Shown: piece after piece, positions 15,293 through 50,235 of the stretch
Numbering within the stretch: position 1 is the first letter of the stretch
Layout of the letters: each line of letters begins with the position of its first letter
The notes under the pieces: generated by a model
Told to the model about the DNA's origin: nothing
Seen by the model: the letters and a program-made list of their open reading frames with translations, nothing else
Database searches by the model: none
Origin: Eremomyces bilateralis CBS 781.70
Lineage: Eukaryota
NCBI GenBank assembly: GCA_010015585.1
Contig: ML975156.1
DNA: 64,000 nt
Reading direction: 5' to 3' (one strand)
Translations under genes and position numbers: made by a program

Positions 15293-16603
15293 CTAAGTTA
15301 AGCCAAAAGTCTGCGCACAGACCCCATTCTCAGCTGAATATCTCTACACCCACCCCTTACTTTGACAATCAATAACTTTACCAAAATGAGGTCTTTTGGC
15401 ACAAAAATAAGTGGTAATCGAGGGCCTAATAAGGAGTTATCGGCCGCTTAAAGAGTTGGGATTGTTCAGGCTGCTGAAGATGGGAAACCAAAGACTGAAA
15501 TCGCGCGGAACTTTCGCGTCTCTAGAAGCGCGGTGTATGGGACTCTAGAGAGGTGGGAAGAACATCAAACCACCGTATCTTTACCCCGTGAAGGGTGTCC
15601 CCATAAGCTATCACGCCCTGACGAACGGCATATCGTTCAAATCGCGCGTCGATTTCTTAAAATGGAGTATGGAGAGCTCCTCGCAGGTATTTCGTACCTC
15701 CGCATTTCTAGGAAGACTATCTACCGAACCCTTAAGAAATATCACCTTACCAAATGGCGAGCGAAGAAGAGGCCTTACCTGAAGCCCCACCACGCAAAAT
15801 ACCGCCTCCGATTTGCCCACGAATTCCTTAAATTCGACTTCTCCCGGACCCACTCCACGGACGAGTGCTCGTATGAGAAGGGGGCGGGCAGTAAGCAGGT
15901 ATGGGTATGGCGACTGTACCACGAGGCATATGATCCGCAAATGGTAGAGCCTAAGGCCTCTGGCAAGGCCATTCACAGATGATATGGGGCTCAATCTCGC
16001 GTGATGGGAGGTCAGGCCTGGTGATCATGGACCGCGACGAAACCTCCGCAAGACAGGGCTATTCCGCGAAATCCTACATCGCTACGTTAGAGGAGGGACT
16101 TCTCCCTACGTACGAACCCGGGGATGTTGTTATCCAGGAGAACGCAAGGATCCATGCGGCTAAAATCACCCAAGAATGGCTGGAGACGCACGGCATTTGG
16201 GTCATCGATTGGCCGGCCAATTCCCCAGACATCAACCCCATCGAGCACATATGGCGTCTGTTGAAATCAAAGGTCCTAGAGCTGCACCCTGAATTGAAGA
16301 ATGGGCGCCTCGGAGGAGGCACGGGAGGCCATGAATGCGGCGTTAAAGGAGGCGTGGTGGGCGATCCCTCAGGAGACGATCCGAGAGCTGATCGACTCAA
16401 TTCCGCGACGTCTACGGGCGGTAACCAAGGCAAAAGGGTGGCATACGAAATATTAGATATTTCCCAATTAAGAAATCAAAAAATTAGACTGAATTTGCAT
16501 TTGTATGTGTTTTGCAGCGTATCTCAAGATACGGTGTATGGCGATCAGATTTGGTGAATGGTGATTTTGGGGGGTGTGCACAGACACATGTCTACTTATT
16601 GTA
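15293..16603 (+). mobile_element. Degenerate Tc1/mariner (DD34E-type) DNA transposon
   Basis: Transposase remnant bracketed by imperfect inverted repeats: left TAAGT..GTCTGCGCACAGACCCC (about 15294-15325), right GGGGTGTGCACAGAC..ACTTATTG-TA (about 16571-16603). Confidence 0.8.
15386..16456 (+). pseudogene. Tc1-family transposase pseudogene
   Basis: HTH region (KTEIARNFRVSRSAVYGTL); STDEC; MIWGSIS; QENARIH where the catalytic QDN reads QEN; WPANSPDINPIEHIW; end LIDSIPRRLRAV..GWHTKY. In-frame TAA at 15449 and frameshifts near 15975 and 16300. Confidence 0.88.
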
Positions 16604-19337: not shown

Positions 19338-21212
19338 ATGTCCTTTCCTTCCATGCCTAACACCACACAAGATGCCTCCACCCCATCCACCGGCGACCCC
19401 AACCCTCCCACTTTCGCCGCCTTCTCACCGAATCCCCTAGGCCACGGCGCCCTCAAACAGCGATCCACCATCCTCGTCCACCAGAAATCTCCGCTCCTCG
19501 TCGCCACACCTCCACAAATCACCCGCGCGCTCGCATATGCATACCCGTTCCTCTCCCCGCTGAACCGCGCCGCCGCCCTGCTCTCATGGACCTCCCCCGA
19601 TCCGTGGGAGAGTTTTCTCCTGCTCGCCGCATTCTGGGCGATCACTTTATACGGTGACCACATCCTACGATGGGCGGGACCGATCGTGTTGATCACCGGC
19701 CTGATCTTCGGAATGTACCTTCGGCGCTACTCTCCTCTCTCCACGGGATACACCGGCGCGAAAGGGCAGGGCAGTCGCGCCCGCTCCGATTCCGACACGC
19801 GCCACCACAAGAGCCTCGACGAGATTCTCGATACCCTAAACATCTTCACCTCGCGGTGTAACATCCTGCTCGATCCGTTTCTGCGATTGACGGACTTCCT
19901 CTCCACCCAACGAACGGCGACCTCGGCCACCACACGGCCCGCGCTCACGACATTATTCATCCGCCTCCTTCTAATCACCCCGATATGGTTCGGCCTCACC
20001 CTTCCGCCACTTTACATCATCACCACCAAGCGCATAATCCTCTCAGTCGGCACCGTCGCGCTTAGCTGGCATTCCCGGCCCGCCCGCATCTCCCGCGTAA
20101 TCCTCTGGCGCTCCCGCCTCATCCGACGGACATGCACCGCCCTGACCGGTCTCCACTTCAGCAACCCGGAACCATCCCCCAAAACCACGCAACCTACCGC
20201 CGCCAATTCTACCAAATCGACCAAAAAAACCGCCAACGACGTTGCCGCGTCGCTGCTCCTCAAACGCGACCCGGCAGCCCCGTCCATCCGCTTCACGTTC
20301 GCCTTGTACGAGAACCAGCGGCGATGGTTGGGGATCGGATGGACGAGCAGCATGCTGGCGTATGAGCGGGCGGCGTGGACGGACGAGCATCTGAACTCGG
20401 CACCGAACAAGGACCGGTTCGAGCTGCCGGAGGTGGACGGCGGGCATGCGGAGTGGCGGTGGGTGGATCCGGAGTGGCGGGTGGAGATGAGCTCGGAAGT
20501 GAGTCCGCGGCGGCGAAGGGGGGAGAAGGTGGATGATGAGGAGGAGAAGGAGGGGTGGATTTATTACGATAATAAGGTAAGCGGCCATTTTATCCCCGCC
20601 GTCCTTGGATTCATGCACCCGGTGTCTCACACACCGATCAATAACTAACCCTTCTTTCTACAGTGGCGCGATCCCCGCCGAGGCCGCGACTCCTGGGGCC
20701 GCTACACCCGCCGCCGCAAATGGTGCCGCGACGCCGAACTTGTCGAGATCACCCCGGCCCCAACACCCACCTCCGGCACTAAACACTCCCGCACCCCATC
20801 CGCGCAAGCAACCTACTCCAGCATCAGCACCTCGCTCGCCGAGCTCCCTGGCTCCTCCCCCTCCTCCTCAACGCTCGTGAACTCCACGCAGTTCCCGTCC
20901 ACCGATGGCGCCGGCGCCGGCTCGATGACCGGGGCGAGCGTGGGTGGGAGCACAGGGAGTTTAGGCGCGGCGGGGAATAGCCATAGCACGCCGGACGCGA
21001 CGAAGCGGAAGGGGTGGTTTCGGCGGACGAGCCGGGCGGCGAGCGAGAAGACGGGGAGTACGGGGAGTGCGCACGGGACGGGGACGGGGACGGGGAGTAG
21101 CGAGCGGAGGGAGAGGGAGGAGGAGGATGAGGCGGTGCCGATGGGGAGGAAGACGGTGGAGCAGCCGGGGGATTGGGGTTATGGGGAGGATGTGCGAATG
21201 GCGTTGGGGTAG
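19338..21212 (+). CDS. Pex23/Pex30-family integral peroxin with dysferlin (DysF) domain (intron 20577-20663)
   Basis: Reticulon-like hydrophobic N-terminal half; DysF motifs YENQRRWLGIGW, WRWVD.EW, EGWIYYDNK|W and RYTRRRKWCRDAELVE. Confidence 0.85.
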
Positions 21213-23119
21213 TGAGATGGGAGGGGGAATGAGGTTCGGGAATACCCGATTGTACTGTAATTACATTGTTTGAGAAGCGAATTAGCTATGACATTTTGCA
21301 ATGGTTTGCGTGGCGCGATATCGGTAGCGCCTATTGAAGTGAATCTGAATGGGTACTACAAGGACACTCTCATCGTCCATCACTACCTATTGTCACATCA
21401 ATGATGTCACGATCATCCCTCTCACAAGCACGCCCGATTCCATTCTACAAGCTTAGGAATACGTCTCTGCATTCAGTCTAGATTCAATATACACAACGAA
21501 TATAGCTAGCTACCCGCCGCCCGCTCTCCGCATTCCATGTTTTCTTTCGATTTTCGGTCAATTTGTCGGTCTCGTAGGGCAATGCATAGGAAACGTCAAA
21601 GAAGGTCGAACAGTCCGTCGTCCAGCTCGCCCCGGTGCATGTTATCGTCGGTTGGAGGTAGCAGGTTCCGACGGGTCTGATGATTTGGCGAGGTCGCTTC
21701 TCCGCGAGGTGCAGGTCGTCGTGAGGAGTCGTTCGTTGCCCCGATATGGATGAAAGTTGCCACGATCGCGGTGCCATGTCGGGTGGAATCAGAGGATCGA
21801 GGACGAGTGGCGAGGGGTGCAGTGCATTTGATTCTAAAACGCGTCAGGTTCCGTTCCAACCAGTCCAGCTCGTGCTATCTAAAGAGGACATACTAGCCGC
21901 AGCTGCATGCTCCCGGAGCGCACTGGCAGCTTCCACCACAGCAGTTGGGCTTTCCACAGGAAGAAGACATGTTGATTAGTTGGATGATGAGAGTATTTCT
22001 CGCGTCTGATTGATCGATTCAGAAATGCTATTGTGATTGAGGTTTGTAGGTGTGCAGGTGGTGAGGTCTGACATCAGATACGCTATCGGAACGCGGGGTT
22101 TCTGTCCTTTAAATAAACAAAGGCGATGCTGCTTGCCCCTCACACCTGACAAGGCTAAACCCCACTTCGAAAGGATCGAACCAATCAGCGGATCGGATCT
22201 TACTGATAAATGGGTCTATTGAGAATTTGAGGCGCCTCTCTCAGCTTGCTCACACGCACAAATCACTCGCGGCACTTGTGCGGCAGCCTAGCAACCACAT
22301 TGGGGTTCACATTGACTGTTCTCACGAGATACAGAGTCCAAACCACCGCTGCCGCAATGCTTGGGGCGCTTGGGACCGTTCAATTCCGACATGGGAACGG
22401 CCCGCTCGACCGGAATAGCGCGACGTGAGCACGTTTTGATTTGGGTAGATGGAGCGACGCCGTGTGTCAACGCTGGCGGGGTGAGCAAGTTAACGCGGGT
22501 GAGGACGATGATGGAGGGTCAGACGGGTGAGCTATAGGCTGCGCAGGCGTGGGTGGATGAGCGGATTAGCAGATTGGAAGAGCAAGGAAGTCAGTCCACT
22601 GAATCTGTGACAGGAAGAGGGGACATTCCTTCGTTCCATCGCTGCTGTTAGATACTGGAGGTACGTACCTGCGCTGGGCTGATATCCTTGGCTGGGGCTG
22701 CGTGCGCATCGTGTCGTACGAGGTGCTGGTCGTCGCACTTGCGGGGTTTCCGCGATGCAGATCGGGTCACAGGTTCAGTAGTTTGATGGCTTGGGAGCTC
22801 GGTGTCCGATCTCTTCCGTGCTTCCGCCCCATGCGTGGCGGTTATATGAATCTGTTATCTCATCGATGGACATGCCTTCGACCCTAACGCCCACACAGAG
22901 GAAGCCTTGACAGACTGTAAACGATAGACGTTCAGTGGTAGAGCAACACTCTGGACTCCATGATACCTGTAATTACTAACTATTTTAGTGATAACTAGAT
23001 ATGTAGGTTTCTATGCGAAGGACGCAAACTTTCCCTTGGGGATAGCTTGATGATCCAGACCGTACTTCGCCTCATGATACAGCCCATCAGTGCCCACTAA
23101 GCCGGACTTCTTGAAGTCA

Positions 23120-31003: not shown

Positions 31004-31690
31004 GAGTGAGTACATAGTCCGGACCCCCGTAGTGGGTCCATATAAACTTGAGTCAACTTTGGCTAAAACAATACGGATACCTCTTTCCATAGTTAGGGAG
31101 TATTCCATAGAGATCGGATTATATGCCTTAGCCTTTCTTCTCGCCTGTGAGGGATGCGCTGATTCGCCATAGCTGTACGGAATAGGCTGTAGCCTTGGCC
31201 CTTGGGCAACAAGGCTAAAACAGACGACGTGTGGGAGACCTGGTCAGGTGCATTGCTGGCTCGGAGCATCTGCGTGGTCCCTTGCCAGAGCTGGACATTC
31301 AGATCGAACAGTGCAGCGAGGCTGCGCTTTGCGCCGCGCCGTAAAGCTCGATGGTGCTGCAGAAAGCGACGATGTCGAAACACCGTTCCGTCGCACAAGC
31401 CTTGCTCCTCAACAACTTCCACACTACTCCGCAATACTCAGTACAGATTATCATATCACCATCTGCCTCACATCTCCTTCCCTTCTCGAAGTCTTAGATT
31501 GCCAGGAGCTGCCTTCAGCGAACCGCGAATTTCCACTTTACCGATGCTGAGCGCTTAGCATCGCTTTTGATAAGTCCGAGACTATCAGGCTTCAGCGATA
31601 GCGACCCGCAACCGATCAGATATCACGAAAATCGATTGTCCGCGGGAGTCAGATCTCTCCTACCAGGGTTTTGAGTTCGGCCGTGCCTTA

Positions 31691-34600
31691 ATGGTCAGCC
31701 AGTATTCTCCAACGATGCCAAAGAGGGAATCAGAAACTCAAACCCATCAAGTTGCAGAAAAGAGAAGAAAGATAGTTGATGATAACGATGGGACCCAACT
31801 GGCCACTACTCCTCCACAGCAACACGCAACCTCGCCACTGACGACGACAATCGAGCTCATACGTCTCGATCGAATCAGAGATGCTTTGAACAATAAAAGA
31901 CTTGTTATTATGGTTGGGGCCGGAGTAACACTGAATGCCACGGCGACTAGGTCAGGCGACATGCTTGGTGAATTGTCGTGGAAAGGCTTGATACAAAATG
32001 GACTCAACTATCTCGTTGCAGATGGTCATGTTGAAGAGGACCATCGCAGTTTAAGGTTTGCACGCGACATACTTCAAGACTCTAAGTCTCAGCCCAAGGA
32101 ACTGCTACAAGCTGCTGGAATACTGAAAGATTTTTTGGAAGACGCCGGTCATCTGCCTACCTGGTTGCATGATACATTTAGCGGGCTCTCTGAACAAGTC
32201 AGGCATGCTGACATCTTGAATGTTCTGAAGTCATTCCACGATAAAGGAGCTCAATTGCTCACAACAAACTACGATGATCTTCTTGAGGAAGGCCATTGTA
32301 ATCTGCCCCGTATTAGGCGGACAAACCATGAGGAACTTCTGAAGTTCCAGAACAGAGATATACGTGGTGTTGTCCATGTCCATGGCAGCTTCCATGACCC
32401 TACCGACGTTATCCTAGACACGACTGACTACTACAAGATCAAAACGTCAGATGACGTTCAGAAGCTGCTGAAGACGCTTTGGAATACTTGCACCATCCTG
32501 TTCGTTGGCTGCGGATCTGGATTGGAAGACCCAAATTTCAGTGCTCTGTTGAAATGGGCGTGTGAACATCAGAACAATATCCTAAATCGACATTGTCTAT
32601 TAGTTCGGACCGGAGATCCTCTCAATGTTAAGCCTCTTGTGCGATTACAATTTGGCACAAGCTATACAGATCTTGTTCCTTACTTACAGCGGCTGCTGGA
32701 AGACCCCGAGCAATCAGCAGCAGGAGGATCGACCAGGCCGAACCGTAAGTAGCGTCGGATGTGTCCTAGTGTCGAATACGTCTATCTATACCAGTAAATA
32801 GAACAGGTATATGTTATCGTGCTATGAGGCGCTAATCTAAAACAGTATATCCCTCTCCCTTCCAAGGTCAAGAAGCCGATAAAGCTGAAAGACCCCAAAA
32901 GGAAGTGGACGGTTAGTGCCAACCTCTATCCAGATGTCCATCCGAACTTTGATGGTTAACGCGTCACAGCCTGTCTCCGCTCCCTATGCTTTAGCAACAT
33001 CCACGCTCGGCGGCAAGACATAGCCGCCGCCCATCCAAATACATGTGACTGGATTTTTACTACCACCGAATATAAGAAGTGGCGGGACCGTACTGACCTA
33101 CAAAATCATAACGGAGTGCTTTGGATCAAGGGCAAGCCGGGAGCGGGGAAGTCGACGTTGATGAAGCATACTTTAGGCCATCTCGAAAAGACTTCCGTCG
33201 ACCACTTGATTGTAGCGTATTTCTTCAACGCTCGAGGCGCCATTCTCGAGAAGACTCCTCTCGGCATGCTTCGATCGATTGTCTACCAGCTCGTTGATAA
33301 AGAAGCTCTGCTATACGAGCATTTCGCCTCTATCTTTCGCGAGAAGCAGAGAATACACACAGGAGATTGGGTGTGGCGACAGTCAGAACTGAAGGAGTTT
33401 ATACTCTCGGAAATCAGGCTGTGGAAATCTAAGCCTCTCGTGCTTCTCGTTGACGCGCTGGACGAGTGCAACGAGGCAGATGTGCGAGACGTAGTTGGTT
33501 TTCTGGAGTTGCTAAGCATCCATGCTGTTGGATTTGGCGCTCCTCTGAGGATTTGTCTCTCGAGTCGTCACTATCCCAGTGTTAGAATGAAGAGGAGTCT
33601 TGAGTTGACGGTGGAAAAGAGTGAAGATCACCAAGAAGATATAGCGAGATATATCAAGGAAAGATTGACGAAAGAGGACGACGACGACGATATAGAGGAT
33701 TTAGAAGATATCGAGGACGAGATCCGGAGAAGAGCGAACGGAATTTTCATGTGGGTTGTTATTGTAGTCTCTCTACTTAACAAAGCCTACGATGAGGGCC
33801 GCATTGAAGCCATGCGTAAGACGCTAGAGGAGGTACCGAGCGACCTCGAGGAGGTGTTCGGCAACCTCTTAAGAAAAGACAGTGAAGATAAGGCCGAGAC
33901 AACACTCATGCTTCAATGGGTGCTGCTCTGTCAGAGGCTGCTGAAGCCTGAAGAGCTCTTCCTCGCCGTGATGACCGAAATAGCTCCGAAGACGATAGAC
34001 AAATGGAACCGATCCAAGTTCGCCAGAGAAATTTTCCAGCGACGTATCACTTCGTCGTCTAGGGGCCTGATCGAAGTTCGAAAAGGATATGAAGCATCGG
34101 TGCAATTCATTCATCTATCGGTCAACGACTTCCTTCTTCGAAACCAGAGGCTGCAGAAACTAGACCAGACGCTGGGACCGGAACCTATCAGCGCCAGCCA
34201 TGGCCGATTGTGGGCGTGCTGCTGGTCATATATTGAGCGAGTGGACACTACAGGCACAGGCATGAAGAAAATGAAGGAGCTGAACGACAACCATCCTTTC
34301 CTGGGGTATGCGGCGAGGCATATACTTTACCATGCCGACATGGCTCTATCAGAAGGTGTCATCGCAGAGACCATTGTACAGTGGCTTCAAAAGTATAAGG
34401 AGTGGTTTAAGTGGTGGAAAAAATTTCTTAGTGCGACTGGCGGTGAGAGTGAGTATCCATATTCGGGCGATCATATGGGTGCGGAATTAGTCTACACGTT
34501 ATCACTTCGTGGTTATCAACATCTACTCCGATATGTCCTGGCCGAGGGCGCCAACATCAACGCGCAATGCGGGCGCTACGGCAACGCGCTCCAAGCAGCA

Positions 34601-35689
34601 GCAGTAGGGCTTGGAGGCAACAAGGAGGTGGTCGAACTGCTGCTGGCCCAGGGCGCCGATATCAACGCGCAAGGCGGGGTGCACGGCAACGCGCTCCAAG
34701 CAGCAGCAGCAGCAGGGTTTGGAGGCAACAAGGAGGTAGTCGAACTGCTACTGGCCCAGGGCGCCGATATCAATGCGCAAGGCGGGAGGTACGGCAACGC
34801 GCTCCAAGCGGCAGGGTATAGAGGCAACAAGGAGGTGGTCGAACTGCTACTGGCCCAGGGCGCCGATATCAATGTGCAAGGCGGGGAGTACGGCAACGCG
34901 CTTCAAGCAGCAGCGTATAGAGGCAACAAGAAGGTGGTCGAACTGCTACTGGCCCAGGGCGCCGATGTCAACGCGCAAGGCGGGCACTACGGCACCGCGC
35001 TCCAAGCAGCAGTAGTAAGGTTGGGAGGCAACAAGGAGGTGGTCGAACTGCTGCTGGCCCAGGGCGCCGATATCAACGCGCAAGGCGGGAAGTGCGGCAA
35101 CGCGCTCCAAGCAGCAGCGTTTGGAGGCAACAAGGAGGTGGTCGAATTGCTACTGGCCCAGGGCGCCGATATCAACGCGCAAGGCGGGCACTACGGCAAC
35201 GTGCTCCAAGCAGCAGCGTATGGAGGCAACAAGGAGGTGGTCGAACTGCTACTGGCCCAGGGCGCCGATATCAATGCGCAAGGCGGGGAGTACGACAACG
35301 TGCTCCAAGCAGCAGCGTATGGAGACAACAAGGAGGTGGTCGAACTGCTACTGGCCCAGGGCGCCGATATCAACGCGCAAGGCGGGCACTACGGCAACGC
35401 GCTTCAAGCAGCAGCAGTAAGGTTTGGAGGCAACAAGGAGGTGGTCGAACTGCTACTGGCCCAGGGCGCCGATATCAATGCGCAAGGCGGGCGCTACGGC
35501 AGCGCGCTTCAAGCAGCAGCGTTTGGAGACAACAAGGAGGTGGTCGAACTGCTACTGGCCCAGGGCGCCGATATCAACGCGCAAGGCGGGCACTACGGCA
35601 CCGCGCTCCAAGCAGCAGCAGCAGCAGCAGCAACGTATGGAGGCACCAAGGAGCTGGTCGAGCTGCTGCTGGCCCAGGGTGCTAAATGA
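31691..35689 (+). CDS. NLR-like protein: SIR2-like domain + NACHT + ankyrin repeats (exons 31691-32744, 32846-32911, 32970-35689; about 1279 aa, or 1271 aa from ATG 31715)
   Basis: SIR2_2-type motifs VGAGVT, TTNYDDLLE, HVHGS and LFVGCGSGLEDPNF. Introns GTAAGT..GCTAAT..CAG and GTTAGT..GTTAAC..CAG are both phase 1 and restore one frame. Pre-NACHT CLRSL.F...AHPNTCDWIF; Walker A GKPGAGKST; Walker B LVLLVDALDEC; 11 ankyrin repeats. Confidence 0.88.
34547..35686 (+). repeat. 11 highly conserved tandem ankyrin-coding repeats (99-114 bp units)
   Basis: Unit GADINAQGGxxGNALQAAxxxGNKEVVELLLAQ, nearly identical at DNA level; unit lengths 35, 36, 33, 33, 35, 33, 33, 33, 35, 33, 38 aa. Confidence 0.95.
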
Positions 35690-43494: not shown

Positions 43495-46050
43495 CTAGCC
43501 CCTCGGCGCAAACCGTTCCAACCAGCTCGCTGCTCCTTTGACATCTCCCCTCTCCGTCTCCAACGCCTTCACCCACCACTCCATCCTCCACCCCCCAACG
43601 CTCACCTCCCTCCCCTTCTCCTCTGCCACCTTCTTCCTCCCCTGACTCGCCTCATCTACACAGAAATGCAGCGGTCCCCCTTCACCATCCTTCTTCACCC
43701 CCTTCACAAACTCCCCCACCGCCGCCACCGCATCCTTCGCCCCTCCAATCGCCGGTATCCCCAAATTCCCCCGTCCCGTCTTACAGAACTCATTCGTGCA
43801 AAACCCCTTTCCACACCCCGCCAACAACTGCGTCAAATACCGCCTCTCCACTCTCCGACTCAGCGCCTTCCGCTCCGGGTCATACTGGCTGACATACAGC
43901 GGCCCGAAACACGTATCGCACAGCCCGACCTCCGCGCCCATCCCGTTCGCACCGCGCGGAACGGTGCGTCCGCAGTTCACGTTGCGGCAGACGGTCGGGG
44001 GCGGCTTTGCGGCGTTGTCCAGCGCGTGGAGTTGGAGGTGGGTGGAGAGGTCACGGAGACGCACGGGACGGTGGCAGATGTCGCAGTCAGAGGTGCGGGA
44101 GCCTTCGGAGAGTTCGTGAGGGGTGAGGTTGGTGAGGGCGACTTCGGCGGCGGGGGCAGAGGGGAGGGAAGGGTCGTGGGAGGTGGTGGGGGAGATGGGG
44201 TGGGAAAGATCGTGGGAGGTGGTGGCGGGGATGGGGTGGGAAAGATCGTGGGAGATGGTGGCGGGGAGATCGTATGGTTGGGATGGTTCGGTGGTGGTCG
44301 TGTAGGTTGTGTCGGAGGACGGGATGGTGCGGCCCTGGGGGACGAGGAGGTGGCAGAATTGGCAGAGGATCTCTTTGTAGGGACAGGTTGAAGTGCGGTG
44401 GCGAGCTAGTTCGAACACCGACGTGCATCGTTCGTTGCATGCGGGACAACGCGTGGCTTCATGGTAGTATGCATCGTGTTTCTGCTTTGATACGATGTTG
44501 TCGCCGTTTGCAGATGCTGGTGGAGATGTGCTCGCGTCCACGACCGGGCAGCTGGAAACGTCGCAGTGCCAGTGCGACGAGGCTTCCTCGGAGTTCTTGA
44601 GGAACACGCGGTTGCAATCAGGGCAGCGCCAGTTGTTGCGGAGGCAGAACGACGTGTGAAGATGGAGCGTGCGGGATGGGATCGAGTTCTGGCAGTTAGG
44701 GCATATCTCCTCTCCAGGCTGCGCTGGCGTCTTCTCGGCTATAATCGATGTCCCTGGAGGTTGCTGTGACTTCGAGTCGAAGGGTAGGACGCGAATGGTA
44801 AAGCTTCGCAGCCCATAGGAGGATGACGAAGTGGGGTACGCGTATACAGATACGTATATCGATTCTGCCGTCTCCAGCTCGACGTTTGTTGGGTTCAGTC
44901 GAATTCGCTTGGGATAGCGACTGGTCAAGTCTGCCCACACGAATTCATCATCTCGTGGCCTTGCTCTTTGCCTCGCTCCAGATGGGCTGATCAGCAAATC
45001 GACTTCGGCGTCTTCCACTCCGAGGTTGGCGACCAATTCGATCTCCAGTCCTTGGCTCCTGTCCCACGATGGGATCTCATAGTCCACATACTCGTCCTCT
45101 TTCACCCATCCTTCCACCTTCCGGAACAAATCCAACGTTCCACCTGCACTGCTTCCGCCTTTTTCCCCTTTCTTCTCCCGCTTCTCGACGATCCGTCGTA
45201 GCGTCTCGCGTGCCTGCTCCTCATCCAGAGCCTCGATGTCGACTTCCAGGTCCGTGTCGACGATGCATATGGCGTCGGACTCGGGCTTCAATTCGTCAAT
45301 GAGAAATCGGAACTGCTCTCTGACTTTCCTCCGCTGATTTGAATCGGCATTGGTTGCAGCGACAAGTCGACCACTAGGAACGACGAGAATGGAGGACTTG
45401 GTGAGAGTGGTGTAGTTGGACCGAAGATGCTCTTGGAGGAGGGCCCGCCAGTCTTCGGGATCGTAGCCCGGTTCCAGGGGCCGCAATTTGACGTAGGTAC
45501 CTTTGGGGACGGAGGTGGCGTGGACTGTTACTGCTTCTTCCTCTTCCTCTTCCTCTTCGCTGTCTTGCATTTCCACGTTCTCATCTCTCCCTCGCAACGC
45601 TTCTATCCTCGCCTCCTTGTTCTTGACCACCCCTCGTAACCCCAACGCTTCGCGTAGGAACCCACTCACCACCACCGTCCCTTCCTCCGCGCTAAACTCC
45701 CTCACCCCTGCATACACCACCCTCCCATTCCGTGGATTCACCACTCGAAATGTCAGCGGGTGCGGTAGCTGCCTCTGCCTCTCTTCTCCAATAGTGCCAT
45801 ACCCCCCGGCTTCGCCGCTCTGGACGCTCCTCTCGAACGCGTCCCACCGGTCCGGACTATCCCAGCGGGAAAATGCATTAGTGGAGGGGCCGCGCTGGGG
45901 ACCAGTAGTCACCGGAGAAGCGGCCAGGAGTTCCTCAAGGGCGGAGGAGGGGAGGAGGAGCTTGTCGCCAGGGAGGGAGGTGGGGGAGTGGGAGATGGTG
46001 AATTGACGGGACCAGGATGGAGCAGGAAAGGGGGTGGAAGGGTTGGACAT
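43495..46050 (-). CDS. UFD1-domain protein with multiple zinc fingers and C-terminal UBA-like region
   Basis: GDKLLLPSSALEEL; PLTFRVVNP..YAGVREFSAEEG; PKGTYVKLRPL; ICIVDTDLEVDI; C-x2-C..H..C fingers (CPNC..HTSFC, CPYKEILCQFCH). Confidence 0.85.
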   Translation of the reverse strand: MSNPSTPFPAPSWSRQFTISHSPTSLPGDKLLLPSSALEELLAASPVTTGPQRGPSTNAFSRWDSPDRWDAFERSVQSGEAGGYGTIGEERQRQLPHPLTFRVVNPRNGRVVYAGVREFSAEEGTVVVSGFLREALGLRGVVKNKEARIEALRGRDENVEMQDSEEEEEEEEAVTVHATSVPKGTYVKLRPLEPGYDPEDWRALLQEHLRSNYTTLTKSSILVVPSGRLVAATNADSNQRRKVREQFRFLIDELKPESDAICIVDTDLEVDIEALDEEQARETLRRIVEKREKKGEKGGSSAGGTLDLFRKVEGWVKEDEYVDYEIPSWDRSQGLEIELVANLGVEDAEVDLLISPSGARQRARPRDDEFVWADLTSRYPKRIRLNPTNVELETAESIYVSVYAYPTSSSSYGLRSFTIRVLPFDSKSQQPPGTSIIAEKTPAQPGEEICPNCQNSIPSRTLHLHTSFCLRNNWRCPDCNRVFLKNSEEASSHWHCDVSSCPVVDASTSPPASANGDNIVSKQKHDAYYHEATRCPACNERCTSVFELARHRTSTCPYKEILCQFCHLLVPQGRTIPSSDTTYTTTTEPSQPYDLPATISHDLSHPIPATTSHDLSHPISPTTSHDPSLPSAPAAEVALTNLTPHELSEGSRTSDCDICHRPVRLRDLSTHLQLHALDNAAKPPPTVCRNVNCGRTVPRGANGMGAEVGLCDTCFGPLYVSQYDPERKALSRRVERRYLTQLLAGCGKGFCTNEFCKTGRGNLGIPAIGGAKDAVAAVGEFVKGVKKDGEGGPLHFCVDEASQGRKKVAEEKGREVSVGGWRMEWWVKALETERGDVKGAASWLERFAPRG
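44174..44270. repeat. 36-bp coding minisatellite, about 2.7 copies
   Basis: TCGTGGGAG units start at 44174, 44210 and 44246 and encode PATTSHDLSHPI-like repeats. Confidence 0.85.
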
Positions 46051-48360
46051 GGGGCCAATGAATAGCAATGGAGAGAAATATTAAGGTGGAGGGAGGGTAT
46101 CTCAGCGCTCTAGTTCGGCGCTGAAATGGAGCTTGTTACAGTATCCTCGTAGGTAAGACGATGATACGTGTATGCCGATTGCGTTGATGTTACGTGCTCC
46201 TCAGCACGTGTGGGGCATCGACCCTAGCCTTCAGGGAACAAAGTGTGGGGGAGGAAAAACCACGGTGATGGTTTGTGGGCCGAAAATCGTTTCAGATGAC
46301 CTCGACGTGGCGCTCAACCGAATGTAGGGCTTGCAGCGTGCAGGCCAAACGTGCAGGCTGCAGATGGTGGAAGCTTGAGTGATGGAGTGCTTGATGCGGA
46401 GGGTGCCGCTGCGGACTCCGGTGGTCGGTGGTAGCAGTTGAGGTGGAATGTGGGGTAGATGTGATGGCACTGGTAGTTGAGGTCAGAGATGAGAGATGGT
46501 GTTATTGAGGCGGTGTATGCGTTAGAGCAGAAACGGCTTGAAGCCAAATAGAAACAAGATTGCCGGAGGATTTCCCAGGATAGATGGTCGATGGAGTGAG
46601 GATTCCCAGATACATTGACGTCTGGTGATATTGGCGTGCCTGGAGGTGATGATCAGACAACGTTTTGAATCCCGAATTCCGGCAAGTCGGTCAATCTTGT
46701 GGATAGTTGGAATTAAACTGTGCAGATGACCTCCCTAGCGGATCGATTTAATATATTTCTCAGGATAATCAAGCCGAACCTGGAGATAGAAATTAGAAAT
46801 TGCCTCTGATGTGGTTACGGGATACGCGTCGCCTCAGGCGCCTAGGCACCCACGCTTGAACATCGAGTCGTCGAGACAGGTATCTTGTCTCTTGATGAAA
46901 AATCCAACCGAATATCCAATCTACGTTCCACATCCTACATGACGTGATTTCCAACTAAACCTCTCGAAGCTTCTATATCCGCATCTGCATTATCTATGGA
47001 GTGCGGGTTGTTCAGCATTCTGCCGCCACAGATGCAGCTATCATGACCCATAGTGGCAAGTTGAAGCGGTATCCTCCTATTAGTCCACCGTCCAAAGTAT
47101 CAACTGACAAACGACTGGCATTGTCCGGTCTAACGTGTTATTCGGCTGAATACCTGGTACCTTGGTGGCCACCGCATCCTCCAGCGTGACAAGACCTGGA
47201 TGGCTGTCCGGGTCACTCCCCCGACCACATCATCTCACAGATTTCTCACTCTCCAATCAGCCCCAGATCATGCATCATCCTGCATCCCCCCGGCTCCCAC
47301 AGCCTTTCCAAAGTCTAAACGAGCTGCAGTCTGCACCCGGTGAGCGACTCACTTAGAGCGAGGCGTGGGAGAGATGTGGTCGTGGTGGGCTGTCAGAATG
47401 CTAAGTTGCTAACCCAACGCGCGGTCTAGCCCATCGAGGCTATGTGCCGAATATCGTCCTGTGGGGACCCTTGGATGCAGCATTGCAGCTCAATCAGAAA
47501 GGCTTAATTGATATTTGATATGGTATCCCAGCCACGATGCCCACAAGTCACACTATGGTACTCACTCACAACGAAAGCGAGAGGTAGGCCAGTGGCCTGA
47601 TTCGCGCGAAGGGGGGATATTCCTGGATATTCCTGGAAGTATGATGATGAGCAATCGATTACCTCGACAAATAACATGCCCAGCACCCGCCGGGGCCGCT
47701 ATTAATACAGCGTTGCGAGTCGCGGGATTTAGCGTTGAGCCGATCTCAACGTTGCTTTTGGACCTTCACCCCATCCCATCTTACTCAATCTATACCTCTC
47801 CTCAACCACATCACACCTGCCTGTCTGCTTCATTTCAGCCTGCTGCATTTGCTAAAACTATTGGCGACATCGGTCAGTTTAGTTTGGAGACTGGACAAAC
47901 GTTGAACGTGTGCGCATCCTCGCGTTTCGTTCATCATGGCTTCCTCAACCATCCCCCCGACTTGACTGACGTCGTCATTCAACCCCCAACGCGCTTTGAT
48001 AATACCTTCAATTTCCCCTGCTCTGGCTTGAATAATACGGATCATCGACCTTTTCATTATTATTTTGCACCTTGCGATTACTTTCCGAATATTCCGAGAT
48101 ACCCTGAAAGACGGTCTTTGACCTTTGAGTGCGCGAAACCCGTGAACGGGGTTCAAGGTCTTCTACTCTACCTTATTGTATGGCCCCCTTAACTTGTGGA
48201 GATTACCAAAAGTATCCCTATGGGTCTCGATTCTGCTTCAACATGTTCCTCGTTCTATATACTGATCTCTTACTAGATTTCACTACTTTAATCCTAACAT
48301 CTTCACCTATCCGTCGATCCGCTCCGCGTTCACCCCAATTAGAATCTTCATCGGACCAGA

Positions 48361-50235
48361 ATGCCTTGGCTCCCACTCACCGTTGAACGCTTTCATTCAT
48401 ACGTCCCCCCCACAAAATGCATCCCGCAGGAGACCGTCCTGGCCGAGGACTCAATGGGCATCTTCGAGCAGGTCCACGAGCCATGCAAGCCGACGCTCAC
48501 CACCATCCTCTCCAACCCGCTCCTCCTCCATCTCATATCGCCATACATCCCCCTCCCCTCCCTAATCGCCCTCTCTGCCACCTGTCATGACCTACACGGC
48601 CTCTTCGATGCCTCCCCTGTCCCCTACCGCCGTCTCGAGCTCTCCCCTCTCCGCCACGCCTATCCCCCACCCCCCCGTCCTCTCGCCATCGGCGGCACGG
48701 AACAACGCACACAGCAGATGGATGATTCGCTCACCGCGTCGGACTTCTACTCCGCCCCGCTCCGGGGGATATTCGCGCAGCTCTCCCGCAGACACATGCT
48801 CAACCACATCAGCACGATGGTTTTGGACGGTCTGGCGGTCACGGCGGAGTTGGTCCGGGAGATCATCTGCGAGGACCGCTTCAATGTGCGCGTGCTGAGC
48901 ATCCGCGAGGTTAAGCATCTCAACGAGCTCGCGCTGCGGCAGACGCTCCTCTATGCCGCACGACCTGGACGCGCAGATGGCGCGTTGAAGCTTCGCGCGC
49001 TGTATGTCTTCGGGGGCCGTGATCCATTGGAGGAAGCGGAAGATAGCGGCCGAGGCGCCAGGACACGACGTGCGCGGACGCGCAGCCCGCTTCCCGCGAC
49101 TGGCCGACCGGCGCCGCGGAGTCCACATCTGGAGGGCCAGGAAAAGGTTAAGGAAAAGCCCATGAAATCCTGGTATCACCCTTCGGGGCGCATCCTCCCC
49201 CGCCGACCCGATGTCGACTGGGCGACCGTCCTGCATGCCTGTGAGGGACTCATCTACTTCGACGCGGTGCTGTGTCGTGGACCCCGCCACAACCCGTGTC
49301 ATTCCCTCCTCTCCTCGCCCCCCTCCTATCTTCCCGCGGCTCCAACCCCCCCCGCAACCCTTACCTACCTCCCTCCCGCCATCGCCACCATCGCCCTCGG
49401 CCACGGCTGCACTTCCTGCACCTCTTGCCCCGAATCCCCCGCGATCTACGGCTCCTCGCCCTCCCCCCAGCTGCCGCTGCTCGCGCCGCCGCCGCTGCAC
49501 GCGAGCACCGTGCGCGCGGCGCAGTGCCCCCTGGGGATGCTGGAGCGGTGGAACGCGACAGAGACGGGGTACGAGAGCGCGTGGCCGCCGAGGGTGTATG
49601 CGCGGTGCGAGGCGTGCTTGAAGCAGCGGTGGTGTGAGCGGTGTGGGAAATGGTGGTGCGAGGAGTGTTACGATCCGGGACGAGGGGGTGGGGTGCATGG
49701 AGGCGGGGAAGAGGCGGAACATGTGGGTGTGCATGATCAGGGAGGGCAGGTGGAGGAGAATGAGGTGACGATGGATGAGGAGGTGGCGGATGGAGATGGA
49801 CAGCCAGAGAGTGAGGATGAGGCGGATGGTATTAATTGGGCGGCGCTGGCGCTGTATGGCGATTTTGAAGAGGATGTCCGGGCGCGGTTGCGGCGTATGG
49901 GGAGAAAGCATACGCAGCCAATGGGCTCAAAGAGGGAGTGCTTTGGATGCGGTCAGACTGTGAGTTCCGTCCCTTTCCAATCTTTCATCTCTCCCCAACT
50001 GTTTCCCCTTCCTACCAAGCAGATATCGGGCTCTTATATTCGATCTTTTTTCGAGGGAATGGGTCGATCAAGCGTACTAACAATCGTCATGCAGTGCCAC
50101 TCCTGCACCAAACAATTCATCCGCCCGTGCCGCACCTGCCGGAACGAATACTGCGTCCTCGATAATGACGGGAGCTCGGCGACAGACTGCGATTGGTGTC
50201 GCTACAGCGGCCGGCGGACCCTGGATCCGTACTGA
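48361..50235 (+). CDS. F-box-like fungal protein with Cys-rich C-terminus (probable in-frame intron 49960-50094)
   Basis: F-box-like LTTILSNPLLLHLISPYIPLPSLIALSATC; TMVLDGLAVT..FNVRVLSIRE; FDAVLCRGPRH; CEACLKQRWCERCGKWWCEECY; terminal CxxC array. Confidence 0.72.
   Translation: MPWLPLTVERFHSYVPPTKCIPQETVLAEDSMGIFEQVHEPCKPTLTTILSNPLLLHLISPYIPLPSLIALSATCHDLHGLFDASPVPYRRLELSPLRHAYPPPPRPLAIGGTEQRTQQMDDSLTASDFYSAPLRGIFAQLSRRHMLNHISTMVLDGLAVTAELVREIICEDRFNVRVLSIREVKHLNELALRQTLLYAARPGRADGALKLRALYVFGGRDPLEEAEDSGRGARTRRARTRSPLPATGRPAPRSPHLEGQEKVKEKPMKSWYHPSGRILPRRPDVDWATVLHACEGLIYFDAVLCRGPRHNPCHSLLSSPPSYLPAAPTPPATLTYLPPAIATIALGHGCTSCTSCPESPAIYGSSPSPQLPLLAPPPLHASTVRAAQCPLGMLERWNATETGYESAWPPRVYARCEACLKQRWCERCGKWWCEECYDPGRGGGVHGGGEEAEHVGVHDQGGQVEENEVTMDEEVADGDGQPESEDEADGINWAALALYGDFEEDVRARLRRMGRKHTQPMGSKRECFGCGQTVSSVPFQSFISPQLFPLPTKQISGSYIRSFFEGMGRSSVLTIVMQCHSCTKQFIRPCRTCRNEYCVLDNDGSSATDCDWCRYSGRRTLDPY

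Follow-up and report, generated by a model that had tools for sequence, protein, structure and literature searches.

A SIR2_2-NACHT-ankyrin gene of Eremomyces bilateralis that probably encodes a NOD-like receptor with a FAM118-like N-terminal domain

In a 64,000-nucleotide (nt) stretch of contig ML975156.1 from the ascomycete Eremomyces bilateralis CBS 781.70 (GCA_010015585.1; hereafter the window), two plus-strand open reading frames (ORFs) lie close together, at 31574..32752 (with an ATG at 31691) and 32960..35689, the first encoding a SIR2-type domain and the second a NACHT module followed by ankyrin repeats. This raises the question of whether they represent two genes or the exons of one, and, if the latter, what a SIR2 domain at the N-terminus of a NOD-like receptor (NLR) would do. 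The locus is probably a single three-exon gene of a filamentous ascomycete, encoding a fused NLR of 1279 amino acids (aa) with an N-terminal SIR2_2 domain, a NACHT module of the NPHP3_N type and 11 ankyrin repeats. By scripted splicing and translation, the three exons join into 3840 nt with one stop, the terminal one. A preliminary description, made from the sequence alone, had joined the two ORFs through two canonical introns; the closure of the frame and the splicing of the second intron bear this out, whereas the first is retained in the sole transcript-like contig.

Only one public sequencing run (X1) carries this sequence, in 13 contigs that are all 100% identical to it and whose RNA nature is a guess. 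A 3180-nt contig of this run covers 31420-32910 unbroken and continues at 32969-34640, so that 58 nt bounded by GT..AG are left out. This join matches the predicted sites of intron 2 and puts SIR2 and NACHT sequence together in one assembled molecule. When intron 1 is kept, an in-frame TAG at 32750-32752, two codons past the donor, closes the SIR2 ORF at 353 aa, and the first methionine of the NACHT frame falls at 33161, past the Walker A motif; hence, the intact 909-codon NACHT-ankyrin frame would be translatable only as a fusion. As the X1 contig, which retains intron 1, neither demonstrates nor disproves its removal, we infer the splicing of this intron from its splice signals, the frame and homology. 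Two other gene models were considered and rejected: one intron of 225 nt, leaving out exon 2, would likewise keep the frame, but the donor at 32912 is the one used in the X1 contig; and a NACHT-ankyrin gene with its own start would have no methionine ahead of Walker A.

Homologous proteins cross the same junction. A SIR2_2 plus NPHP3_N protein (P0002) aligns with 63.5% identity over model residues 54-800 in a single high-scoring segment, and another protein that is 87% identical in the NACHT part (P0241) joins the exon-2 peptide to the start of exon 3 in the same manner. Five listed proteins combine SIR2_2, NPHP3_N and ankyrin repeats (P0009, P0016, P0017, P0019 and P0020), while others carry WD40, TPR or NB-ARC in the same domain order. 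Bacterial SIR2_2-NACHT proteins are also collinear with the 1279-aa model at approximately 25-33% identity, for example P0070 with 25% over residues 59-573.

A claim of novelty for this architecture in fungi is overturned by prior work. Fungal SIRim-NACHT/NB-ARC-ankyrin/TPR proteins have been reported, and the FAM118B lineage termed "clade A", by Bonhomme et al. (bioRxiv 10.1101/2024.09.18.613514), a study since published in final form according to PMC12700824. As far as they are described there, the fungal and animal clade A proteins have the same order, with an N-terminal SIRim/SIR2_2 domain, a NACHT or NB-ARC module and ankyrin or TPR repeats; and database proteins with the same layout are named from Rhexocercosporidium (P0009) and Curvularia (P0017). 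The gene is no different in kind. It adds one member to an already published, functionally uncharacterised architecture, and is as such a candidate for experiments rather than a discovery. That no functional characterisation of such proteins in fungi was known, as the preliminary description also had it, holds: literature searches, with subscription journals and supplements outside their reach, turned up the Bonhomme preprint alone for the architecture in fungi and no functional work on any SIR2-NLR from a fungus. The words SIR2, sirtuin and PF13289 are absent from the main texts of Dyrka 2014, Wojciechowski 2022 and the 2025 Sordariales NLR catalogue, and NADase and FAM118 are absent as well from the main texts of the latter two. 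What is added here is the exon structure, the catalytic and fold checks, a transcript-like contig from which intron 2 is spliced out while intron 1 remains, and a recurrent intron at the junction.

Sequence and structure searches help to place the SIR2 domain within its superfamily. Pfam recognises SIR2_2 (PF13289) on the first ORF (E 5.1e-17; 62.7 bits against a cut-off of 24.5), and no other family, PF02146 included, at E <= 0.01. The best match in a PDB sequence search is human FAM118B (E 4e-21, residues 69-336), followed by SeThsA 7uxt (deposited as "USG protein"; 1.6e-05), DSR2 (5e-05), KomC and the remaining ThsA entries (~0.01), with no classical sirtuin at E <= 1 among the 14 matches listed. 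An AlphaFold2 model built from 39 homologues (pLDDT 80, with residues 1-47 below 50 and predicted to be disordered) retrieves FAM118B as its best Foldseek match (TM 0.72 by target), then DSR2, ThsA and HAM-SIR2, and no classical sirtuin appears in the 40 rows listed, which reach rank 50. Exon 1 is devoid of a CxxC motif, its cysteines being at positions 203, 267, 274, 291 and 302; according to PMC12700824, SIR2_2 proteins lack the zinc module. A classical deacetylase sirtuin was thus rejected as an identity for the domain, on account of the lack of PF02146, of any listed sirtuin match in sequence or fold, and of the CxxC/Cys4 zinc module. Taken together, these features suggest a FAM118-like SIR2_2 domain that is probably NAD-cleaving. 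A prediction of a two-copy complex of residues 48-345 scored 0.01 against a mark of 0.32, a result that says nothing on self-association. The first 47 residues (window 31691-31831) hold a basic KRRK patch, also present in a 77%-identical protein (P0122), which could be a nuclear-localisation signal.

These results agree with the preliminary description in assigning the domain to the SIR2_2, antiphage-like class as opposed to the deacetylases, in the retention of the catalytic asparagine and histidine, and in the absence of the zinc module; its motif positions (GAGVT at 31916, TTNYD at 32261, HVHGS at 32375, GLEDPN at 32519) are exact, and both Walker motifs and the 11 ankyrin repeats are present. 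The likeness that it drew to bacterial antiphage SIR2 proteins stands at the level of class, but the nearest characterised relative is the eukaryotic FAM118B, with an E-value far below those of DSR2 and ThsA.

Human FAM118B (SIRal; PDB 9r0p / 9r3e) and the present domain share the Asn/His/Asp residues, the lack of a zinc module and a Rossmann domain with a small helical subdomain. In FAM118B, either of the mutations N163A and H206A, or one that breaks the assembly, is reported to abolish processing of nicotinamide adenine dinucleotide (NAD), D255 is named alongside H206, and activity is reported to require head-to-tail assembly and the partner FAM118A (PMC12700824). However, FAM118B, of ~350 aa, occurs as a free protein, assembles head to tail into filaments and has FAM118A as its partner, whereas here the SIR2 domain is predicted to be tethered to a NACHT module that would supply the oligomerisation. 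The strict definition of the FAM118 clade given in PMC12700824 is vertebrate-specific and asks for at least 41% identity to the human FAM118s; the present protein, being fungal, with ~25-29% identity and a histidine at the position of F122, lies outside it. Relative to the bacterial SIR2-STAND and antiphage enzymes (SIR2_2-NACHT-FGE-sulfatase, Avs5, DSR2, ThsA), it shares the SIR2_2 fold with the catalytic asparagine and histidine and, in the STAND forms, the combination of sensor, NTPase and N-terminal SIR2. It differs from them in sequence (25-33% identity), in their sensors, which are FGE-sulfatase, TPR or phage-protein binding domains, and in its NACHT module, which groups with those of fungal NLRs. 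SIR2 is counted among the effector domains of bacterial NACHT proteins by Kibby et al., and assembly-dependent activity is noted for bacterial SIR2_2 enzymes in PMC12700824.

The best 120 listed relatives of the NACHT part are all fungal NLRs (49-87% identity), and by our own count from the table of matches, with family names checked on examples, their N-termini are NACHT_sigma in nine, HET in eight, PNP_UDP_1 in six, SesA in four, NACHT_N in one and SIR2_2 in one (P0002), most others having no assigned N-terminus. The fungal HET-, PNP_UDP_1-, SesA- and NACHT_sigma-NACHT-ankyrin NLRs share the NPHP3_N-type NACHT and highly conserved ankyrin repeats with this protein at 50-65% identity, and differ from it in the N-terminal output domain. 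Conversely, a protein that is 66% identical in the SIR2 domain (P0001) has only ~30% identity over 166 aa in NACHT, so that close relatives of the SIR2 domain sit on a different NACHT subtype. This points to domain shuffling, by which an ordinary fungal NLR chassis would have received SIR2 as one of several interchangeable heads.

In the ankyrin array, Pfam detects Ank (E 2e-64, in 10 stretches) and Ank_2 (E 3.5e-70), and the DNA is a 99-nt tandem repeat at 34538-35619 with 90% matches. Where the 11 units differ, they do so mainly in columns 3, 4 and 6 and in the loop that separates the helices. This is the same pattern of repeat variation as reported for fungal NLRs by Dyrka et al. (2014), in whose account the ankyrin repeats show high internal conservation, variable sites on the binding face and polymorphism in repeat number. 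Between window positions 34571 and 35627, the X1 contigs add up to a depth that varies from 11 to 148, and they break within the array; the copy number of a 99-nt repeat is unsafe in a short-read assembly, and the assembled number of 11 may not be exact. The coordinates of all features are collected in Table 1.

Table 1. Features of the SIR2_2-NACHT-ankyrin locus, in window coordinates (A1, alignment of 39 SIR2 homologues).
Feature	Position	Strand	Basis or remark
5' leader of the X1 transcript-like contig	31420..31690	+	contig starts at 31420 behind adapter letters; ATG 31691 is the first in-frame after the upstream stop
Exon 1: 47-aa disordered N-terminus, then SIR2_2 domain	31691..32744	+	Pfam; AlphaFold2 model; 100% identical to the 353-aa P0121
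GAGVT glycine-rich NAD-binding loop (G76, G78)	31916..31930	+	G76 and G78 invariant in the 39 aligned homologues (A1)
Asn193 of TTNYD, catalytic Asn	32267..32269	+	aligns with FAM118B N163 and DSR2 N133; at least 90% conserved in A1 (39 sequences)
His231 of HVHGS, catalytic His	32381..32383	+	aligns with FAM118B H206 and DSR2 H171; invariant in A1
Asp280 of GLEDPN	32528..32530	+	aligns with FAM118B D255; invariant in A1
Intron 1 (predicted), 101 nt, phase 1	32745..32845	+	GTAAGT donor, CTAAT branch-like site, ACAG acceptor; homology; retained in X1 contig
Exon 2, 66-nt linker, peptide ending ..LYPSPFQGQEADKAERPQKEVD	32846..32911	+	frame and translation; peptide also at the N-terminus of P0241; donor used in X1 contig
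Intron 2, 58 nt	32912..32969	+	GTTAGT, TTAAC, ACAG; spliced in X1 contig
Exon 3: NACHT module, helical/winged-helix region, ankyrin array	32970..35689	+	ORF and Pfam; stop TGA at 35687-35689
NACHT NTPase core (NPHP3_N, residues 27-203 of the ORF translation)	33038..33568	+	NPHP3_N E 1e-32, NACHT E 8.3e-07
Walker A GKPGAGKST	33131..33157	+	sequence
Walker B LLVDALDEC	33443..33469	+	sequence
Ankyrin array: capping half-repeat and 11 near-identical units of 33-36 aa	34532..35686	+	Pfam Ank; unit count

Thus, the locus is best read, with moderate confidence, as an NLR in which the ankyrin array acts as sensor, the NACHT module as switch and a FAM118-type SIR2 domain as the NAD+-cleaving output. 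On the STAND paradigm and by analogy with the relatives discussed above, the ankyrin array would bind a ligand, either foreign or an allelic variant of self, upon which the NACHT module would exchange nucleotide and oligomerise. The resulting NACHT ring could concentrate the N-terminal SIR2 domains into a higher-order assembly and thereby switch on NAD+ cleavage through Asn193 and His231. Such oligomerisation-triggered cleavage is plausible, and might either drain NAD+ and so arrest or kill the hyphal compartment, or else yield an ADP-ribose-derived signalling product. The NAD+-depleting cell death put forward in the preliminary description is one option; FAM118B itself is reported to be a weak, assembly-dependent, signalling enzyme.

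Several observations weigh against this reading. On the side of the enzyme, no NADase measurement for any fungal member was found in the literature; FAM118B is reported to be weakly active alone and to be a signalling component rather than a killer (PMC12700824; Bonhomme et al., bioRxiv 10.1101/2024.09.18.613514); and in our own reading of the PDB sequence alignment a histidine occupies the position of the FAM118B filament residue F122, so that the FAM118B mode of assembly need not apply. In the ankyrin repeats, the contrast in pN/pS at the variable columns (1.06 versus 0.38) is circular, as the columns were chosen by their variability, and gives no evidence of positive selection. On the side of the gene, the sole transcript-like contig still contains intron 1, no joint across it being among those listed, and the genome's own annotated protein (P0121) is a free SIR2 of 353 aa, 100% identical and with SIR2_2 as its only domain. 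No NACHT-ankyrin or fused protein of the genome itself was seen among the listed matches of 497-1584 aa to the NACHT part. Further, X1 is not recorded as RNA, and its contigs drop rare variants and give no isoform ratios.

The alternative that survives best accepts the fused receptor and differs in the role of the SIR2 domain, which would be a signalling or modifying enzyme, either processing NAD weakly or acting as an ADP-ribosyl transferase, as has been proposed for FAM118B. This is a minority possibility. FAM118B is the closest characterised relative by both sequence and fold, its weak activity is reported to need assembly and the partner FAM118A, and it is reported to act in Toll-like receptor signalling without cell death; moreover, the fusion of SIR2_2 to an HMG box in fungal relatives such as P0172 is unlike a suicide module. 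However, identity to the FAM118 proteins is only ~25-29%, and the vertebrate-specific surface patches are reported in PMC12700824 to be absent from non-vertebrate relatives. The bacterial SIR2_2 structural neighbours, DSR2, ThsA and KomC/HAM-SIR2, are all deposited under NADase or NAD(+) hydrolase names. These bacterial proteins act by draining NAD+, and the N-terminal domains of fungal NLRs that have been characterised so far are mostly death effectors. With the former a general sentence on bacterial SIRims in Bonhomme et al. agrees, and the latter is in line with Dyrka et al. (2014).

A second alternative concerns the gene product itself: the free FAM118-like SIR2 protein of 353 aa, made from an mRNA that retains intron 1, would be the sole product, with the NACHT-ankyrin part being an untranslated 3' part or the remnant of a very young NLR pseudogene. 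The retention of intron 1 in the X1 contig and the 353-aa form of the genome's own protein both speak for it, as does the predominance of free SIR2_2 proteins of ~280-400 aa among the 120 listed homologues of near length. Nevertheless, the 909-codon frame is still open, with Walker A and B intact and 11 ordered repeats, intron 2 is spliced even though it lies downstream of the TAG stop, and the signals of intron 1 are canonical and preserve the frame. Furthermore, many of the "free" SIR2 proteins in the databases are probably first exons cut at the same junction, since the SIR2 ORF comes to its stop a little ahead of the NOD ORF in every SIR2-then-NOD locus tested in metagenomes (see below). 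A free protein as the only product is therefore improbable.

The metagenome contigs were scanned with the SIR2 alignment A1; the best 80 of 171 relatives were kept and the first 30, which are fungal-like with 38-58% identity, were examined, whereas a scan with the SIR2_2-NPHP3_N-ankyrin protein P0016 as query found no relative. In 21 of the 30 loci the contig extends for 600 nt or more past the SIR2 match, and in 15 of these 21 a NACHT or NB-ARC module follows on the same strand (13 called by tblastn, L010 and L021 by Pfam). One further locus (L011) shows NACHT within its 470 nt of downstream sequence, bringing the loci with a NOD ORF after SIR2 to 16 of the 30 examined. In L023, TPR_10 repeats come after an ORF without an assigned family, and four loci have no assignable downstream domain, L006 and L009 holding ORFs without a family and L018 and L026 having short flanks. 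This is an indication that most of the fungal-like SIR2_2 loci sampled (15/21) are NLR genes.

In all 14 SIR2-then-NOD loci that were tested, the SIR2 ORF closes shortly past the domain and the NOD lies in a separate ORF. Between the domain and the end of the SIR2 ORF lie 1-68 codons (loci L001-L027), and a consensus-like donor hexamer occurs at or near this end in eight of the 14. One of the loci, L020, has stops inside both the SIR2 and the NOD matches and may be decayed or mis-assembled. An intron at the SIR2/NOD junction thus looks like a trait of the family, and most of the "free" fungal SIR2_2 proteins of ~280-400 aa that metagenome gene callers produce may be NLR-gene first exons that end at the stop within the junction intron. 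Such a recurrent intron explains the free SIR2 in the annotation of this genome and probably many database entries: annotation pipelines would call the free SIR2 and drop the receptor, as has happened with this genome's own protein, and fungal NLR catalogues consequently probably under-count the SIR2 class.

It is also conceivable, although we consider it rather unlikely, that intron 1 serves as a switch, whose retention would give the free 353-aa SIR2 and whose splicing would give a SIR2 domain tethered to NACHT-ankyrin. The two forms might then cooperate in the manner of FAM118A and FAM118B, in that the receptor would nucleate an assembly which the free form either feeds or dampens. If so, the design could be general in fungi, given the SIR2-intron-NOD layout of all 14 loci examined (L020 being decayed or mis-assembled), and many "free" fungal SIR2_2 proteins in the databases would be alternative or truncated products of NLR genes.

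Two of the metagenome loci display other arrangements. An uninterrupted ORF of 718 codons at L002:365-2518 (+) carries SIR2_2 followed by PNP_UDP_1, with no NOD, as do the proteins P0003, P0005-P0007, P0011 and P0199; SIR2_2 and PNP_UDP_1 each serve as NLR heads or as effectors that target NAD or nucleosides. At L009:7972-9012 (+), an ORF with weak matches to PigL_N and SesA, which are NLR-head-like, is found ~2 kb downstream of the SIR2_2 ORF, and the intervening ORF has no family.

The origin of the SIR2 domain was addressed with a quick IQ-TREE analysis of 67 SIR2 domains, comprising that of the window and 66 proteins hand-picked from 240 listed, with midpoint rooting and without ThsA, DSR or pAgo rows as outgroup. 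All 46 fungal rows, that of the window included, form one clade (SH-aLRT 97), which under this root adjoins three eel FAM118 domains (SH-aLRT 89, the branch not being starred) and is apart from the 18 bacterial rows. The identity of the SIR2 domain is ~25% to FAM118B in the fold alignment and 28-29% to the eel FAM118 domains. Within the fungal clade, free, NLR-linked, PNP-linked, ankyrin-only and HMG-linked architectures are interspersed; the 14 NLR-linked rows need 11 changes, and as few were seen in 41 of 500 label shuffles. This interspersion is consistent with frequent domain shuffling, with truncated gene models, or with the two together. The SIR2_2 proteins with a C-terminal HMG box (P0172, P0227 and P0235, from Bisporella and Pseudogymnoascus) fall in one starred clade and suggest that some members may have a role connected with DNA or chromatin.

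The domain hence appears to be of an old opisthokont lineage and not visibly a fresh bacterial import; the test for horizontal origin by phylogeny that the preliminary description had proposed gives no sign of a recent bacterial transfer. A recent horizontal gain of the whole SIR2-NACHT module from a bacterial SIR2-STAND antiphage gene, to which the collinearity of the bacterial SIR2_2-NACHT(-FGE-sulfatase) proteins at 25-33% identity might point, is very improbable in the face of this placement (midpoint root and quick search notwithstanding), of nearest listed NACHT relatives that are fungal NLRs with other N-termini and SIR2_2 on one of 120, and of spliceosomal introns, a housekeeping gene neighbourhood and ordinary GC content.

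If NAD+ is indeed cleaved on activation of the receptor, NAD+-targeting immune effectors would be part of the fungal NLR repertoire too; such effectors are already known as SIR2 from bacteria and as TIR from plants, animals and bacteria. The gene would further offer an experimentally accessible relative of human FAM118B, tethered to a receptor, in which to study assembly-driven enzyme activation.

Around the locus, the window has the make-up of an ordinary filamentous-ascomycete chromosome, with genes for MCM10, an RNase H2 subunit, Pex24, a Cid1-type poly(A) polymerase, cytochrome c heme lyase, Yip1, a UFD1-like protein, a GMC oxidoreductase, a cutinase, NCA2 and a tyrosinase; GC content is ordinary, and the closest named homologues come from Eremomyces bilateralis. 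Elsewhere in the window, a Tc1/mariner-type transposase at 15452-16554 (+) is split over two ORFs, the first with HTH_Tnp_Tc3_2 and further helix-turn-helix domains and the second with DDE_3, and looks decayed. GC-rich stretches (0.59-0.60) lie at 48343-50232 (+), 20001-22000 and 44001-46000, one of which holds a 630-codon ORF without a Pfam family.

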